Positions 101-30,600 of a DNA stretch of 35,564 nt are shown here, piece by piece. Positions within the stretch are counted from its first letter, which is position 1. Each line of letters opens with the position of its first letter. Source of the stretch: an uncultured Clostridia bacterium (GTDB lineage Bacteria > Bacillota > Clostridia > TANB77 > CAG-508); the NCBI GenBank assembly GCA_944392435.1, contig CALXWQ010000002.1:1-35564 (forward strand). The letters are read 5' to 3'. Below the pieces are notes generated by a model. The model was not told the DNA's origin. It was given only the letters and a program-made list of their open reading frames with translations, and did not search any database. The translations under genes were made by a program, and so were the position numbers.

Positions 101-266
101 GTTACTGTTCAGTGTAATTTATATAGAATGCTCGCATAATTCATGACAATAATGTAGTTCCACGTGGTAGATATATATTTTGTTCGAATACCTGGAGAAC
201 ACAATATATATCTACCAGCAAGATGGAACGGACTTTTCTGTAATATTTTTTATACTGAACAGTAAC
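101..266 (+). repeat. Family X element, copy 1: core hairpin 149-236 enclosed by outer inverted repeat 101-116 / 251-266
   Basis: Core: ATAATGTAGTTCCACGTGGTAGATATATATTTTGTTCGAATACCTGGAGAACACAATATATATCTACCAGCAAGATGGAACGGACTTTT. Closing helix GTTCCA/TGGAAC, inner helix GGTAGATATATATT/AATATATATCTACC. Outer arms GTTACTGTTCAGT / ACTGAACAGTAAC are 13 bp perfect. Confidence 0.8.
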
Positions 267-272
267 GTAATT

Positions 273-287
273 GTTACTACTCACGGC
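273..287 (+). repeat. Solo family Z-like arm next to X copy 1
   Basis: GTTACTACTCACGGC compares with GTTACAATTCACGGC. No convincing partner arm was found. Confidence 0.35.
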
Positions 288-3815: not shown

Positions 3816-3856
3816 TTTAACCTCCATTAAAGATAATATTAGTTCTAGCAAAAATT

Positions 3857-3948
3857 AACGAAAGTGTATAGAATAATGTGTTTTAATCTTTTAAAATGCT
3901 GAAATACTTAAGAAATTTTTAATTTAACACAATAAAAAATACATAGTC
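3857..3948 (+). repeat. Family Y repeat, copy A (inside the RR-HK spacer)
   Basis: AACGAAAGTGTATAGAATAATGTGTTTTAATCTTTTAAAATGCTGAAATACTTAAGAAATTTTTAATTTAACACAATAAAAAATACATAGTC. Confidence 0.7.
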
Positions 3949-4763: not shown

Positions 4764-4780
4764 TTGTTACAGTTCATGAT
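4748..4780. repeat. Family Z-like hairpin upstream of the response-regulator gene
   Basis: ATCATGAATT-ataccattgttac-AGTTCATGAT. GTTACAGTTCATGAT resembles the Z TIR. Confidence 0.5.
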
Positions 4781-4822
4781 TTGCATTCTTTACAATATGC
4801 GTTGATATTTTATTTTGACATG

Positions 4823-4905
4823 GTAGTTCCATGTCGTAGATTTATATTTTGCTCGAAAACATGAATAACGCAATATATGTCTACCGACAAGATGGAACTG
4901 ATTTT
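4823..4905 (+). repeat. Family X element, copy 2 (core)
   Basis: GTAGTTCCATGTCGTAGATTTATATTTTGCTCGAAAACATGAATAACGCAATATATGTCTACCGACAAGATGGAACTGATTTT. Same architecture as copy 1. Flanking complementarity is weaker and interrupted (about 4793-4815 / 4906-4929). Confidence 0.8.
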
Positions 4906-5001
4906 AATAGATATTTTCAAATATGCATTATAACTAAGTATTAGTATAGCAAACTATTATTAATAAAAAAGGAAAAATTTATTAATTTTTTATTAATGAA
5001 C

Positions 5002-8433: not shown

Positions 8434-8456
8434 ATATGTTCACCAGCAAGATTAGT
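8434..8456 (+). repeat. Family X remnant (right-arm fragment only)
   Basis: ATATGTTCACCAGCAAGATTAGT compares with ATATATCTACCAGCAAGATGGAAC in copy 1. No left arm is present. Confidence 0.45.
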
Positions 8457-8545: not shown

Positions 8546-8641
8546 GTTACAATTCACGGCTATCTTTACAAAATAACGGTTGTAAATTATAGTAAAATAG
8601 TTACAATTTTTCACATACTTTTCACAAATCCGTTGTATAAT
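8546..8641 (+). repeat. Two tandem diverged family Z-like units
   Basis: Unit 1: GTTACAATTCACGGCTATCTTTACAAAATAACGGTTGTAAATTATAG. Unit 2: GTTACAATTTTTCACATACTTTTCACAAATCCGTTGTATAATAT. Each can pair GTTACAA with TTGTAA. Confidence 0.5.
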
Positions 8642-10418: not shown

Positions 10419-11210
10419 TCAAATTCCAAAAATTTTATTAGTATTCTCAAATGTAATTCTAGCAATCTCATCTAGGCTCAATTGTTTTACATTAGCAATT
10501 TTTTCTGCAATATACTTAACATTCCTAGAATCGTTTCTTTTCCCTCTATGTGGCTCTGGTGACAAATATGGGCTATCAGTTTCAATTAAAATTTTATCTA
10601 ACGGAACCATTTCTATTATTTCATTTGCATTTTTAGAATTCTTGAATGTTACTGGTCCTGCAAAAGAAATATAAAATCCTAGCTTTAGTGCCTCTTTTAC
10701 TAATTCTCTATTCAATGGACAACAATGAAATACACCATTCTTTTTGACAATATGTTCTTTTAGTATTTGCAAAGTGTCCATAACAGCTTCTCTTGTGTGA
10801 ATTACAATAGGTAATTCATATTTATTAGCTAATTCTATTTGCTTTATAAAAGCATCTCTTTGAAGATTTCTTTTGTTTTCATCCTTTTCCCAATAATAAT
10901 CTAGTCCTATCTCTCCAATTGCTACTATTTTATTTGTATTTAATTCTTTATGTATAAATTCTTCTAGCTCTTTTAATTGTTCTTCAAGATTGCTTTTTTC
11001 TCCTGGAATATCATTTGGAGAAATTCCAGAAATTGTATACATCCAATCATACTTCTTTGCAATCTCTAAAGCATATTTTGAAGATTCTAAACTATACCCA
11101 GCATTAATTAATCTGGTTACCCCAGAATCATAAATATTTTGAATTAGCTCTTCTCTATCCTCATCAAATTTCTCATCATTGTAATGAGCATGTGAATCAA
11201 AAAGCTCCAT
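10419..11210 (-). CDS. tatD: TatD-family metal-dependent hydrolase/DNase
   Basis: MELFDSHAHYND..., GEIGLDYYW, VIHTREA, ETDSPYLSP motifs. Confidence 0.9.
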   Translation of the reverse strand: MELFDSHAHYNDEKFDEDREELIQNIYDSGVTRLINAGYSLESSKYALEIAKKYDWMYTISGISPNDIPGEKSNLEEQLKELEEFIHKELNTNKIVAIGEIGLDYYWEKDENKRNLQRDAFIKQIELANKYELPIVIHTREAVMDTLQILKEHIVKKNGVFHCCPLNRELVKEALKLGFYISFAGPVTFKNSKNANEIIEMVPLDKILIETDSPYLSPEPHRGKRNDSRNVKYIAEKIANVKQLSLDEIARITFENTNKIFGI

Positions 11211-11774: not shown

Positions 11775-13022
11775 TTATTTTTGAGCTATCCAAATTGCGA
11801 TAAGATTAATAACTAATATCACTGCCACGATTACCAAAGTAACTATATTATTCTTATTTAATTCTTCTACATTATGCTTTTTATATGTAACATCATATTC
11901 ACTTTTAAGCTTTACAAATGTATTTTCTATGTCCAATTTTTCATTCCATACTTTTTCAAGTCTATTTCCAAACTCTTCATTTGTAATATCTTGTATCCAA
12001 AGCCTTTTTGTAAAATCCAAAAAGCCTTTTTCTGCTTCTTTAAATTTATTTTTGAATTGATAATTTAATTTATTCAAGGTCATTTTTTTGTATAAAATTA
12101 ATATATACATATATAGATATTCACTTTCAAATTTTTGAGGTACTACTGTAAAATTCGTAGTATTTATATTTGATGTAAATAATACTGTACTAGACATTGT
12201 AAATCCATATCTTATATATTGATTTTTATAAATATTTTTTATCTCATCTATATTGCTATTTCTAGTTGCAAATTCATCATCTACCATCTGTGAATTTGCT
12301 GGTTGCACACTTCTATATTTCTCAAAAAGATTATTTAAGCTATCATTTTCTGTGTTCTCATTCCAATCTTTTTGATCCAAACAAGTATATGAATATACAA
12401 AGAACTTATCATTTCCGATATTTGCCTTTTTTGAGATATTATCTTTGCCTGTCAATTCTTTTATTAACATTGATATATCTTTTACATTCTTAAAAGAACT
12501 AGATTGTATTTTTATATTCTCATATTCTTTCAAATTATATGATATAGAATTAATTTCCCTAAATTTATAATTAAAATTTAAAATGTCTGAGAAATTGCAG
12601 TTGTCTTCTAAGTTAGTCTTAAACATTAAGAAGCATACACCTGATTTAAAACATATTATTTTTATCTCAGATATTTCGAAAAAAATTCCATTTTCTTCAT
12701 CAACTTTACCTTGCAAATTTTCTGTAAGCTCATAATTAAATATATTGCAATCATGTTCTGATAACAATGTAGATTTAAGTGTTGAATCCATTTTTTCAAA
12801 ATCTCTAATACTTTTTTTGTCTAGTCCAAAAGACCAAAACATATACTCTCGTATACTTGGTAAAAAATATGTGTATAAATGTATGTCTTTTTGCTTATCA
12901 AAAAATCTTATTTTGCATTTTTTGTTACGAAGTAAACCTTGTAAATATTTTTTATAGTTTTTTTCATCAATTACATATGGATAAATAAAATACGTATATT
13001 GATATTTTGTCATAAGTTCCAA
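11775..13022 (-). CDS. Hypothetical protein with a single C-terminal TM anchor
   Basis: 415-aa ORF. TTG start at 13022 has GGAGG 7 nt upstream. The C-terminus IVTLVIVAVILVINLIAIWIAQK is a TM helix. I recognise no family motif. Confidence 0.6.
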   Translation of the reverse strand: MELMTKYQYTYFIYPYVIDEKNYKKYLQGLLRNKKCKIRFFDKQKDIHLYTYFLPSIREYMFWSFGLDKKSIRDFEKMDSTLKSTLLSEHDCNIFNYELTENLQGKVDEENGIFFEISEIKIICFKSGVCFLMFKTNLEDNCNFSDILNFNYKFREINSISYNLKEYENIKIQSSSFKNVKDISMLIKELTGKDNISKKANIGNDKFFVYSYTCLDQKDWNENTENDSLNNLFEKYRSVQPANSQMVDDEFATRNSNIDEIKNIYKNQYIRYGFTMSSTVLFTSNINTTNFTVVPQKFESEYLYMYILILYKKMTLNKLNYQFKNKFKEAEKGFLDFTKRLWIQDITNEEFGNRLEKVWNEKLDIENTFVKLKSEYDVTYKKHNVEELNKNNIVTLVIVAVILVINLIAIWIAQK

Positions 13023-13041: not shown

Positions 13042-13070
13042 ATTATATGATAAATAGTTCCACATGGCAA
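13042..13070 (-). promoter_or_regulatory. Promoter-like element overlapping the end of X copy 3
   Basis: The minus strand reads TTGCCA-17 nt-TATAAT. The -35 lies inside the X core. The predicted start falls 1-2 nt before the GGAGG of the 415-aa ORF, an unusually short leader. Confidence 0.4.
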
Positions 13071-13135
13071 ACATATTTTTTATGCAAAACTTGGAGCAGA
13101 CAAAATATGTCTGCCAGCAAGATGAAACGAATTTT
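13055..13135 (+). repeat. Family X element, copy 3 (core)
   Basis: TAGTTCCACATGGCAAACATATTTTTTATGCAAAACTTGGAGCAGACAAAATATGTCTGCCAGCAAGATGAAACGAATTTT. It occupies most of the 128-bp spacer between two minus-strand genes. Confidence 0.8.
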
Positions 13136-13150
13136 ATAAATAATTCTATT

Positions 13151-14683
13151 TTATTCACTATCTGTAAAGTAATACAAATTCAAGTCTTCTCCTAAATGCC
13201 ATTTTCCAATAAACTGCACTAATATATTGTTATCCAAATTGTATGATGGTGACATAGCTACTTGCCCATTAGAATCTACTGCTCCCCATAATCCATTTTG
13301 TTTTACACTAGCATATCCATAATCATTTTGTTCTCTTGCTTCATCATATATATAATTAACAACGACATTACCATTTTTATCTACAAATCCATATTTTCCC
13401 TCATCGTTTTTACTTAAGTAAATAGTATTTGTAGAAAAAATATCTTTAGCAGTTTTTTCTTCAAATCTAAAATTATAGTATTTATCAATATCATCTACTC
13501 TTACTTTAATATAACCTTTTTCTTCATTTAATTCAGAAACTATTACTTTAGATAGCTTTACGGACAAATCTGAATCTATTAAATCTGAGGTATAATCATC
13601 ATTCATAGCCTCGTAAAAATTTCCTGCTCTTCTATAAACTATGTTTGAATAATTAAAATCTATAGGTGTATTTCCTTCTGAATTCATTATTCCGAATTTT
13701 CCATTATTATTTACTATATAATTGTTGCCAGTAGCATAAGTTATATTATCATATTTTATATCTATTATATTCTTTTCATCAGTTATTCCTACAACTCCAT
13801 ATTTATCATTCTTTATAACAATTGCATTCTCACCGTTTACAGAAACAATATCATCATATTCTCCTGATAAATATTTCTTTCCTTCAACATCAATAACTTC
13901 CCAATTGTCTCCTTCTTTTACAATATAATATTTTCCATTTCCATATACATTCTTGATGTCGTCATAATTTGTTTCTATTGCTACTGTTTTTGTATAGTTT
14001 ATAACTCCATATTTTCCTTCTTCATTTTTAACTATATATCCATTCTCAAATTGATTTGAAACTGGCTCTATAGCTTCATATTGGTTATCTATAATTACTG
14101 TACCTACATTATCAACTAGACCATACTTTCCATTTTTTTGTGTTAATAAACTATTTGTAACACCTTTTAAAGCATTTATTGAATCATAATCGCAACCAAC
14201 TATTTGTCCTCCATTTGTATCTATTATTCCATATTTTCCTCCTTTAGATACCTTAAGAATTCCTGACTCATACCACAAATTATTACTACTATCGTAATTT
14301 TCTATTGCCTCTACAGTATCATAATCTGTAAATAGTTCCTCGTTTTTTTCATTTAAAACCTTTGTCTTGTATGTACCATCTTCATAATTCACATCAGTTG
14401 TACATATAAATAATCCCTTTGTATTATCTGGAATAACTATATATTCATCATAATTTGGAGTAATTATTGTATTACCTCTTGAATCTATAACTCCCCACTT
14501 TCCTTCTGTATAAACTGGAAAGTATTTTAATGCTACTGCCTTTTCTACTTTATTGCCATCTGATTTAAATAATTTGCTTATTCCTATAAAAAACATAATT
14601 ATTACTGCAATTGCTATAATTACTGCAAATACTTTTTTTAAATTTAGCTTTTGTTCTCCCTCAAATCTTCTGCCTCTACTCAT
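13151..14683 (-). CDS. Membrane-anchored WG-repeat (KWG-type) protein
   Basis: N-terminal TM followed by at least 10 repeats of the type GKWGVIDSRGNTIITPNYD / GKYGIIDTNGGQIVGCDYD / GKYGLVDNVGTVIIDNQYE. Confidence 0.8.
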   Translation of the reverse strand: MSRGRRFEGEQKLNLKKVFAVIIAIAVIIMFFIGISKLFKSDGNKVEKAVALKYFPVYTEGKWGVIDSRGNTIITPNYDEYIVIPDNTKGLFICTTDVNYEDGTYKTKVLNEKNEELFTDYDTVEAIENYDSSNNLWYESGILKVSKGGKYGIIDTNGGQIVGCDYDSINALKGVTNSLLTQKNGKYGLVDNVGTVIIDNQYEAIEPVSNQFENGYIVKNEEGKYGVINYTKTVAIETNYDDIKNVYGNGKYYIVKEGDNWEVIDVEGKKYLSGEYDDIVSVNGENAIVIKNDKYGVVGITDEKNIIDIKYDNITYATGNNYIVNNNGKFGIMNSEGNTPIDFNYSNIVYRRAGNFYEAMNDDYTSDLIDSDLSVKLSKVIVSELNEEKGYIKVRVDDIDKYYNFRFEEKTAKDIFSTNTIYLSKNDEGKYGFVDKNGNVVVNYIYDEAREQNDYGYASVKQNGLWGAVDSNGQVAMSPSYNLDNNILVQFIGKWHLGEDLNLYYFTDSE

Positions 14684-28267: not shown

Positions 28268-28533
28268 ATGTATTTTTTATTTATGTTTTTCTTTTTTATT
28301 CCTTATAATTTTCAATAATATAGGTTTATTTTAGCATCTTTTGTCTAGTATTTCAACAAATTCTTCTAGGTGTCTACCTTTTATACTTTCATTTCTTTTT
28401 ACGGAAATAAAGTATTTAAGCGAAATATTAAATTTATATTACATTTTTGTTACAAGCATGTAAATTGTCACACTTTTTAACTTTTTGAATATTATATTAT
28501 AGTTTTCTAACATATATTATATTAAGGTTAATA

Positions 28534-28709
28534 GTTTGAAAGTAACAACTCAGGAGGTATTAATTTATAATTCGTTCTATTTCGCTGGTAGATATATATT
28601 GTGGTCTCCATGTATTCAAACAATATATATGCCACATGAAACTACATTATAGTAATATTATAGCAAACTTTTTAGAGTTTACTATCTTCTGAGTTGTTAC
28701 TTCCGAAAC
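28534..28709 (-). repeat. Family X element, copy 4 (opposite orientation): core 28567-28650 enclosed by outer inverted repeat 28534-28553 / 28689-28709
   Basis: The reverse complement of 28567-28650 is ATAATGTAGTTTCATGTGGCATATATATTGTTTGAATACATGGAGACCACAATATATATCTACCAGCGAAATAGAACGAATTAT, which matches copy 1 at roughly 73 of ~90 positions by hand alignment. Outer arms AAGTAACAACTCAG / CTGAGTTGTTACTT are 14 bp perfect, extendable to ~20 bp with one mismatch and one bulge. Confidence 0.8.
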
Positions 28710-29373: not shown

Positions 29374-29668
29374 TTATCCTTTATTTCCCCAGTTTTACCC
29401 AAGACCTTACTATGGTTATACACAAAAAAGCAATTGTAACGTGAATAACAATCATATTAATCATATTAAAAGTTCAAATATTGAGCATGAGAAAAATAAT
29501 TCTAGATCTAAGAATATTAATATTGAAGATGATGTTTTATTTGAAATTTTCGGAATAAAACTGCATCAAGATGATATTTTGCTTATTTGTTTAATTTTCT
29601 TTTTATATAACGAAGGTGTTAAAGATGAGTTTTTGTTCATTGTACTAGTCTTACTTCTATTATCATAA
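29363..29668 (+). CDS. Hypothetical small protein: Tyr/Pro-rich N-terminus, hydrophobic C-terminus
   Basis: ATG at 29363 has GGTGGTGA 8 nt upstream and overlaps the upstream stop by 11 nt, suggesting translational coupling. Sequence: MTYNYPLFPQFYPRPYYGY...DDILLICLIFFLYNEGVKDEFLFIVLVLLLLS. Confidence 0.5.
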   Translation: MTYNYPLFPQFYPRPYYGYTQKSNCNVNNNHINHIKSSNIEHEKNNSRSKNINIEDDVLFEIFGIKLHQDDILLICLIFFLYNEGVKDEFLFIVLVLLLLS

Positions 29669-29673
29669 AAAAT

Positions 29674-29831
29674 AACGAAAGTATATAGATTAATGTGTTT
29701 TAAATTTTAAAAGATGGTAAAGTATTACAATTCACGGCTTGTTAATTATATTTAAAATTTGCGATAAGCAGGCCATGAATTGTAACGGTAAAGTGCGTAA
29801 TTTTTTTATTTAACACGCTAAAAAACACATT
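29674..29831 (+). repeat. Family Y repeat, copy B (interrupted by the Z insertion)
   Basis: AACGAAAGTATATAGATTAATGTGTTTTAAATTTTAAAAGATGGTAAAGT[Z insertion + duplicated GGTAAAGT]GCGTAATTTTTTTATTTAACACGCTAAAAAACACATT. Confidence 0.65.
29724..29786. mobile_element. Family Z: 63-bp MITE-like (miniature inverted-repeat transposable element) insertion with 15-bp TIRs and an 8-bp flanking direct repeat
   Basis: ATTACAATTCACGGC...GCCATGAATTGTAAC (13 of 15 complementary). It is flanked by GGTAAAGT at 29716-29723 and 29787-29794. It interrupts family Y copy B at a point where copies A and C are continuous. Confidence 0.6.
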
Positions 29832-30507: not shown

Positions 30508-30600
30508 GACCATTTATTTTTTAGTGTGATAATTTGAAAATTTCTTAAGTATTTAGCATTTTCTTATATTAAAAACGCACTATTTTATACACTTTCTTCA
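30508..30600 (-). repeat. Family Y repeat, copy C (PBP2-minC spacer, inverted relative to copy B)
   Basis: The reverse complement reads GAAGAAAGTGTATAAAATAGTGCGTTTTTAATATAAGAAAATGCTAAATACTTAAGAAATTTTCAAATTATCACACTAAAAAATAAATGGTC. By hand alignment about 75 of ~90 positions are identical to copy A. Confidence 0.7.

Follow-up and report, generated by a model that had tools for sequence, protein, structure and literature searches.

The first 35,564 nucleotides (nt) of contig CALXWQ010000002.1 from an uncultured Clostridia bacterium (assembly GCA_944392435.1), hereafter the window, contain several copies of a hairpin, here called family X, and raise the question of whether this repeat is a functional RNA or a piece of mobile DNA. 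An earlier note on the same DNA, made by a model from the letters alone, had held the two kinds of explanation to be equally plausible. We conclude that family X is most probably a non-autonomous transposable element, namely a MITE (miniature inverted-repeat transposable element) with a hairpin core. We favour this assignment because the repeat is ~165 bp long and lacks coding sequence, ends in inverted repeats, is accompanied by an 8-bp duplication, occurs as dispersed copies whose sites are polymorphic, lies in AT-rich intergenic targets and is found nested. Set beside the published definition of MITEs (PMC11602168, PMC10969869), it is a non-coding unit of 159–169 bp with inverted repeats of 12–14 bp (a minimum of 10 bp being required), an 8-bp duplication and dispersed copies that differ in presence and absence.

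A hairpin core within a unit bounded by inverted repeats

Four matches to the right arm of the hairpin, written as the degenerate pattern CAAWATATRTCTRCCRRCRARATRRAAC, lie in the window, whereas 100 dinucleotide-preserving shuffles give an expectation of 0.00. With a covariance model built on the core's 85 nt (model R1; 85 positions, 26 base pairs), four copies are recovered, as the earlier note had located them: copy 1 at 153–237 on the forward strand, which carries the canonical sequence and scores 112.5 bits; copy 2 at 4822–4906 (forward strand; 81.4 bits, seven non-Watson-Crick pairs); copy 3 at 13053–13136 (forward strand; 89 bits, three non-Watson-Crick pairs); and the decayed copy 4 at 28566–28646 (reverse strand; 67 bits). 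Run over the whole window, the model finds no fifth copy. It also misses a remnant of the core that the earlier note had rightly picked out, ATATGTTCACCAGCAAGAT at 8434–8452 on the forward strand, because the right arm alone survives there; this remnant is an exact match to the pattern ATATRTNNRCCAGCAAGAT, for which chance would give 0 matches. In agreement with the same note, open reading frame (ORF) and gene calls place all four copies between genes, none of them being overlapped by an ORF of at least 80 amino acids. Copy 3, whose arms measure at most ~20 nt, occupies a narrow gap with a stop codon at 13151 on one side and, on the other, a ribosome-binding site and start codon at 13022. The host belongs to the Clostridia, is AT-rich and forms spores; the genes of the window include those for SpoIIE, MreBCD, MinC and a penicillin-binding protein.

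The core, with a G+C content of 33–36%, folds as previously described into a closing helix (GTTCCA/TGGAAC), an asymmetric internal loop (CG versus GCAAGA) and a 15+5-bp stem that carries one conserved T·C mismatch and is capped by an 11-nt loop. GGAG can be read in the loop of three of the four window copies, again as reported.

Further copies in relatives, for which the earlier note had called, are present. Exact matching returned 26 matches in 185,579 species-representative genomes, all of them in five metagenome-assembled genomes (MAGs) labelled uncultured Clostridium or Clostridia, and nine more came from metagenome contigs, scanned with both core ends fixed and the stem left free. In the 251 kb of loci assembled for comparison from these related MAGs and metagenome contigs (numbered L001 and so on), model R1 detects 44 copies. 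At gathering thresholds, Rfam 15 gave no match anywhere in the window, in line with the earlier failure to recognise the element as any RNA family; relaxing the search of positions 1–400 to E ≤ 10 yielded chance matches to microRNA hairpins only, at 13–22 bits against thresholds of 71–195. The 175-nt unit had no BLAST match among 72,556 plasmids and 50,697 phages, the viral contigs scanned held nothing similar, and searching the full-text literature for the sequences of core and ends turned up unrelated primers only. Family X is a MITE family not previously described and restricted to a narrow group of uncultured Clostridia.

When the copies are aligned together with their flanks, an inverted repeat emerges in most of them ~54–56 nt before the core on the left and ~24–30 nt after it on the right. 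The full unit, 159–169 bp long, therefore consists of a left arm of ~42 nt, a central hairpin of ~80 nt and a right arm of ~20 nt, and its ends are terminal inverted repeats of 12–14 bp that read GT(T/A)AC-N3-TCA and fall into three arm types: type A (left GTTACTGTTCAG, right CTGAACAGTAAC), type B (left GTTACAATTCACAG, right CTGTGAATTGTAAC) and type C (left GTAAC(A/T)ACTCAG, right CTGAGT(T/A)GTTAC). The size of ~85 nt given earlier thus fits the conserved core, but not the repeated unit of copies 1, 2 and 4, the three of the four window copies that outer inverted repeats bound. Copy 1 is a complete element of type A1 at 101–266 (forward strand, 166 bp), with GTTACTGTTCAG at 101–112 and CTGAACAGTAAC at 255–266; it folds into a single long hairpin (z = -7.4) and shares 97.7% identity over 173 nt with a copy at another site, L027. 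The interval 101–266 singled out in the earlier note equals this full element, although its outer repeats and duplications had not been recognised as boundaries. Copy 2 is a decayed complete element with type-B-like arms at 4766–4934 (forward strand), in which GTTACAGTTCATG at 4766–4778 and ATGCATTATAAC at 4923–4934 are remnants of the repeats. Copy 4 is a complete element of type C at 28542–28700 (reverse strand, 159 bp), with GTAACAACTCAG at 28689–28700 and CTGAGTTGTTAC at 28542–28553.

Perfect 8-bp direct repeats abut the ends of the unit at L012 (ATTTATTT), L020 (TTAAATAA) and L011 (ATTAGGAC), and six of eight flanking positions match at L015, L023 and L032. Over 15 units the flanks agree at an average of 4.9 of 8 positions, compared with 2.65 for flanks paired between different units; in these mismatched controls the probability of at least six matches is 0.024 and none of 210 pairings reaches eight. 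No duplication could be made out around copies without clear arms, whose flanks are almost all A/T. Direct repeats such as those at L012, L020 and L011 mark insertion by a transposase with an 8-bp stagger between its cuts. We therefore picture a transposase, encoded elsewhere in the genome, that would bind the ends of the unit and insert it into AT-rich intergenic DNA by cuts staggered by 8 bp, which would leave the 8-bp direct repeats.

Filled and empty sites, decay, exchange and nesting

Differences in presence and absence, another check that the earlier note had proposed, are seen at orthologous sites. The orthologue of window positions 28480–29000 in L028 lacks copy 4 entirely and carries, ~200 bp away, another copy that is missing from the window. 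Likewise, the site of the L011 unit is without an element in L020, where the two genes lie 17 nt apart, and in L024, where they lie 152 nt apart. Other sites are common to pairs of species (window copy 2 and L002, L010 and L021, L001 and L008, L020 and L024). Copies thus persist vertically at some sites, and they then decay by point mutation, by losing the loop or by losing one half. All three states can be found. Window copies 2–4 account for 16 of the 28 non-Watson-Crick pairs among 37 distinct copies; the L001 copy has no apical loop; L008 keeps one half of its orthologous copy, the other half being deleted; and L016 has only a left half, cut by the end of a gene. The units of L020 and L024 are a single orthologous insertion with the same left arm, and the right arm is of type A in L020 and of type B in L024, a swap which shows directly that sequence has been exchanged between copies. 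Near this element (~110 nt away) both loci also have a small hairpin, ATAGTTCCA-N9-11-ATGGA(A/G)CGCCGGAT (L020 ~1140–1175, L024 5041–5063), which resembles the closing helix of the core without the inner stem; it is the single such case in the 251 kb and we judged it uninformative.

Within the species of the window we saw no polymorphism, copies 1 and 2 being present in six of six assemblies from different samples. In three of six independent assemblies of this species contigs end inside or at copy 1, a behaviour to be expected of a repeat in the genome.

Two units are nested. At L003 1506–1744, the inner stem of the core of a type-B unit is split by a complete variant core in the same orientation, with the closing helix GCCTCA/TGAGGC, which sits in the apex of the host core. 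At L011 5683–5990, a type-C unit with the duplication ATTAGGAC lies inside a larger and GC-richer palindrome, GGACAATTGGGGATGGGCTTGTTTTGTCCTAAT ... ATTAGGACAAAACAAGCCCGTCCCCATTTGTC, which is possibly yet another repeat family. Pneumococcal repeats likewise insert into each other, according to a 2024 review of MITEs (PMC10969869).

A uniform core, drifting arms and the rival explanations

Covariation, set as a check by the earlier note, is present by counts of pairing. Across the 37 distinct copies, standard pairs fill 98.2% of pair cells and both sides have changed at 11 of the 26 pairs; none of 500 shuffles reaches this level, and partners slid by 1–3 columns pair at 30–54% only. The compensated differences first described between copies 1 and 3 generalise over the whole set: the closing helix occurs as GTTCCA/TGGAAC, GTCCCA/TGGGAC, GTCTCA/TGAGAC and GCCTCA/TGAGGC, and the inner stem as GGTAG.../...CTACC, GGCAG/CTGCC, GGTAAAC/GTTTACC, GGTATAC/GTATACC and GTCACAT/ATGTGAC. 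Since the non-Watson-Crick pairs show no asymmetry between strands (11 G·T on strand A, the orientation in which copy 1 lies on the forward strand, versus 8 A·C), this covariation is silent on which strand folds and on whether RNA or DNA does so, and the assignment of a strand from wobble pairs, which had seemed contradictory in the earlier note, had to be abandoned.

The core is also far more uniform than its surroundings. Among 19 full units the mean pairwise identity is 92.7% in the core, 66–72% in the terminal inverted repeats and 46–58% in the arms. At the site shared by L010 and L021 the core is identical at 85 of 85 positions, the arms at 73–88% and the coding flanks at 90–92%; at the site shared by L020 and L024 the core agrees at 81 of 85 positions and the arms at 59–77%. 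Window copy 2 and its counterpart in L002 share 86% of the core and 87–91% of the arms, and since the L002 core is canonical and all departures from the canonical sequence lie on the window side, uniformity is kept in some genomes and lost in that of the window. The arms are homologous and constant in length across types A, B and C, so that core and arms share ancestry and the core is not a simple invader of unrelated carriers. We attribute the contrast to gene conversion between copies, which would act across the long identical core and keep it uniform while the over-diverged arms drift. Element-level selection for a centre that folds back may contribute to this uniformity, and template switching within the palindrome may restore pairing without selection.

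Several observations weigh against a plain MITE. A core better conserved than the inverted repeats reverses the usual MITE pattern, and perfect duplications were found at 3 of 15 units only. Some copies, window copy 3 and L005 among them, are almost or entirely armless, and the core may thus be able to move alone by a second mechanism. The unpaired CACGTG, the internal loop AG(C/T)AAGATG and the T·C mismatch stay fixed even where seven stem pairs have changed, which suggests that something recognises a folded or sequence-specific core, while purifying selection acting site by site would equally explain the 100% identity of the core at L010 and L021. Finally, no transposase with matching ends came to light in the 251 kb: an all-against-all comparison of 203 ORFs returned orthologues between MAGs only, no ORF is repeated within one genome, and a paired-end regular-expression search with ends up to 2.5 kb apart bounded no gene-sized element. 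A better-conserved interior does not by itself demand a new mechanism. It is nonetheless conceivable, if doubtful, that the core is a selected module read in folded form, as single-stranded DNA or RNA, by a dedicated protein; the retention of the internal loop, CACGTG and the T·C mismatch, the ~93% identity beside drifting repeats and the seating of one core in the apex of another are the grounds for considering it. If this were true, Firmicutes would possess a system of the REPIN-like or 'guest module' sort, seated on a MITE chassis of DDE type that has at least one other hairpin as cargo (that of family Z, see below).

A rival reading, in which the ~80-nt core replicates itself as a REPIN-like fold-back that a single-copy HUH (Y1) transposase recognises as single-stranded DNA, and the repeat-bounded units are older DDE-type carriers that it has invaded or homogenised, seems to us unlikely. 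It would account for a core that holds at 93% identity beside drifting arms and inverted repeats, for an asymmetric internal loop and T·C mismatch kept through seven compensatory stem changes, for near-armless copies where the space between genes is very tight (window copy 3 and L005), for the variant core nested in the apex of another, and for a 15:5 bias in orientation, a possible product of strand-specific insertion. Repetitive extragenic palindromic (REP) sequences (for the class, see PMC3116915 and PMC8266576) begin with (G)TAG, and so does the core. REP units, however, are GC-rich and 20–40 nt long, whereas the core is AT-rich and 80 nt long. The homologous, constant-length arms argue against repeated invasion, clean insertion boundaries were observed at the outer inverted repeats only, a fixed target motif 5' of the core was not seen, and the flanking ORFs examined include no gene for a Y1 transposase or a REP-associated tyrosine transposase (RAYT). 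The other mobile option raised earlier, an IS200/IS605-style element, fares no better, as those elements have neither inverted repeats nor duplications.

The genes around the copies bear on whether the hairpin works as RNA. Of 20 informative sites, judged from crude ORF calls, the complement of A is the sense strand of the gene reading into the element at ~15 and orientation A at ~5 (two-sided binomial p ~0.04), and the five sense-oriented A copies all lie 15–150 nt past a stop codon. Selection against having the hairpin and its T tract within transcription units could produce this bias, and so could a strand preference of insertion; the former explanation is weak because a consensus scan calls no terminator in orientation A. 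Ten downstream genes that we tested have unrelated functions (the products include a cohesin protein, an SMC-like ATPase, endonuclease III, uracil-DNA glycosylase, a pseudouridine synthase, CysRS, an LD-carboxypeptidase and rubrerythrin), which makes a riboswitch-like or regulon role unlikely. A functional RNA carried by or exapted from the element, either as a cis-acting stem in 5' untranslated or intercistronic regions that affects mRNA stability or translation, or as a multi-copy small RNA, might still draw on the CUCC anti-Shine-Dalgarno loop of the strand complementary to A, on the strong covariation in both helices and on the predominance of that strand as sense (~15 of 20). It might also draw on L010 and L021, where the element lies in the 5' leader of nth (endonuclease III), between a TGnTATAAT promoter and the start codon, and the core is kept at 100% against ~73% for the adjoining arm on the start-codon side; regulatory stems and small RNAs derived from MITEs are, moreover, documented (PMC10969869). 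We nevertheless consider such a role quite improbable for the family, given that the downstream genes share no function, the non-Watson-Crick pairs lack strand asymmetry, window copies 2–4 are decaying with no sign of constraint, one persistent copy (L001) has no apical loop, and the unit has neither a promoter or terminator of its own nor an Rfam match. The earlier statement that a noncoding RNA is just as plausible thus finds no backing in the downstream genes or in the pairing counts.

Least probable of all, and in our view very unlikely, is a portable intrinsic terminator comparable to the pneumococcal SPRITE repeat, with orientation A stopping transcription at the 3' ends of genes. The terminator-like T-run reported after the hairpin in orientation A does exist, as three or four T set 3–4 nt off the stem, but it is short and is absent from copy 4 and from L010 and L021. 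While the position of the five sense-oriented copies shortly after stop codons and the rarity of orientation A on the sense strand would suit such a function, three-quarters of the copies face the opposite way, and a consensus scan at three copies found no terminator-like site. Nor does the structure resemble a G+C-rich, short-loop stem followed by at least five T, its loop being 11 nt long, and co-orientation with the gene is seen at only ~5 of 20 sites. The terminator-like interpretation of the earlier note was therefore not sustained. The promoter-like -10 box that it had placed just beyond the element is convincing at copy 3, where a hybrid promoter takes its -35 (TTGCCA) from inside the element and its -10 from the flank, but the family as a whole lacks it: consensus scans revealed no outward promoter common to the copies and no promoter or terminator belonging to the unit itself. 

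For the MITE, the effect on the host would probably be incidental. A co-transcribed unit forms an mRNA stem of ~26 bp, which would be a plausible substrate of RNase III, as Correia elements have been shown to be (PMC10969869).

Taken together, the inverted repeats, the 8-bp duplications, the filled and empty sites, the decay of copies and the lack of an Rfam match favour the MITE, one of the options that the earlier note had listed.

Related repeats, known systems and meaning

Family X is not the only hairpin with such ends. Cut by the start of the window and 18 nt from copy 1 lies the 3' part of a family Z element (1–82), complete in L035 at ~10647–10805. Family Z is ~160 bp long and has 18-bp inverted repeats (GTTACTGTTTAATGGTTT) in the same end style as family X, and its interior is a different, GC-richer long hairpin (RNA fold z = -10) with compensatory changes between copies, which also occur at L017 722–883 and L009 237–396. 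Against Rfam at E ≤ 10 it gave chance matches to microRNA hairpins only. In L035 the family Z element is followed, beyond the start of the window (10806–10892), by a strong promoter-like TTGACA-17-TAATAT, after which all contigs end; a repeated operon, for instance one for rRNA, may begin or end there.

A mini element of 63 bp at 29724–29786 consists of 18-nt inverted ends (ATTACAATTCACGGCTTG and CAGGCCATGAATTGTAAC, type-B'-like) around a 27-nt spacer. Two solo motifs of the form GTTAC-N3-TCACGG, GTTACTACTCACGG at 273–286 (forward strand), which adjoins copy 1, and GTTACAATTCACGG at 8546–8559 (forward strand), are probably orphan ends of related elements; the latter 14-mer is identical in three unrelated loci, recurring at L025 2195 and, on the reverse strand, at L027 1738. 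That several passengers (family X, family Z and the mini element) share their ends points to one transposase active in the lineage. The window also holds a separate intergenic repeat of ~100 nt, unrelated in sequence to family X, with 87% identity between copies at 3850–3948, 29667–29712 and 30508–30596; one copy is direct and one inverted, and they lie where a response-regulator gene meets a histidine-kinase gene and to either side of minC.

The closest known systems are the hairpin MITEs: Correia/NEMIS of Neisseria, RUP of Streptococcus pneumoniae, bcr1 of the Bacillus cereus group and QMITE of Coxiella. Their duplications are TA for Correia and RUP and TTTAT for bcr1, whereas that of family X is 8 bp, and the interior of family X is far better conserved than its inverted repeats. 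What family X has in common with these elements is a length within 50–800 bp, the lack of coding sequence, inverted repeats with duplications, AT-rich intergenic sites, long stable stem-loop transcripts, nesting and possible processing by RNase III (PMC10969869, PMC11602168, PMC2229807). With REPINs it shares a long imperfect hairpin whose pairing is maintained through compensatory changes, intergenic orthologous copies that persist vertically, and a sequence population dominated by a single master sequence (PMC3116915, PMC8049555). REPINs, however, have no terminal inverted repeats apart from the hairpin and no target duplication, both of which are present in family X; they consist of two GC-rich REP units (20–40 nt with a GTAG head) rather than a single AT-rich hairpin of 80 nt, and they flank a single-copy RAYT gene, of which none was seen among the flanking ORFs examined. 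Palindrome-associated transposable elements derived from IS200/IS605 are similarly short non-coding passengers with hairpins as their conserved parts, but they lack inverted repeats and duplications and use a fixed tetra- or pentanucleotide target, while family X has both features and the bases 5' of its core or unit vary.

The IS256 family makes duplications of 8–9 bp, a size that the 8-bp duplication of family X fits, and no IS256-type transposase was seen in the 251 kb. The complement of the 3' edge of the core, ATAAAGTCCGT, has an 11-nt identity to the IS256 terminal repeat GATAAAGTCCGTATAATTGTG as given in primers (PMC4207318), which we regard as a lead and not a finding. Because the motif lies 28–29 nt inside the tip in both families X and Z, the tips themselves reading GTWAC, we do not claim membership of the IS256 family.

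Family X adds a new family to a familiar kind of selfish DNA and is not a new class of RNA. It explains why contigs break at this point in these uncultured gut Clostridia, and model R1 together with the end motifs lets annotators mask a repeat that is in none of the databases searched. It also cautions that strong stem covariation in a dispersed hairpin is not proof of an RNA gene. As a compact case of a uniform interior between diverging ends, it brings together gene conversion, selection for fold-back and a second mechanism of mobilisation as candidate causes, and it may illustrate how one set of ends can carry different hairpin cargos. Should the core have a recognising protein of its own, REPIN-type systems would be extended to the Firmicutes.

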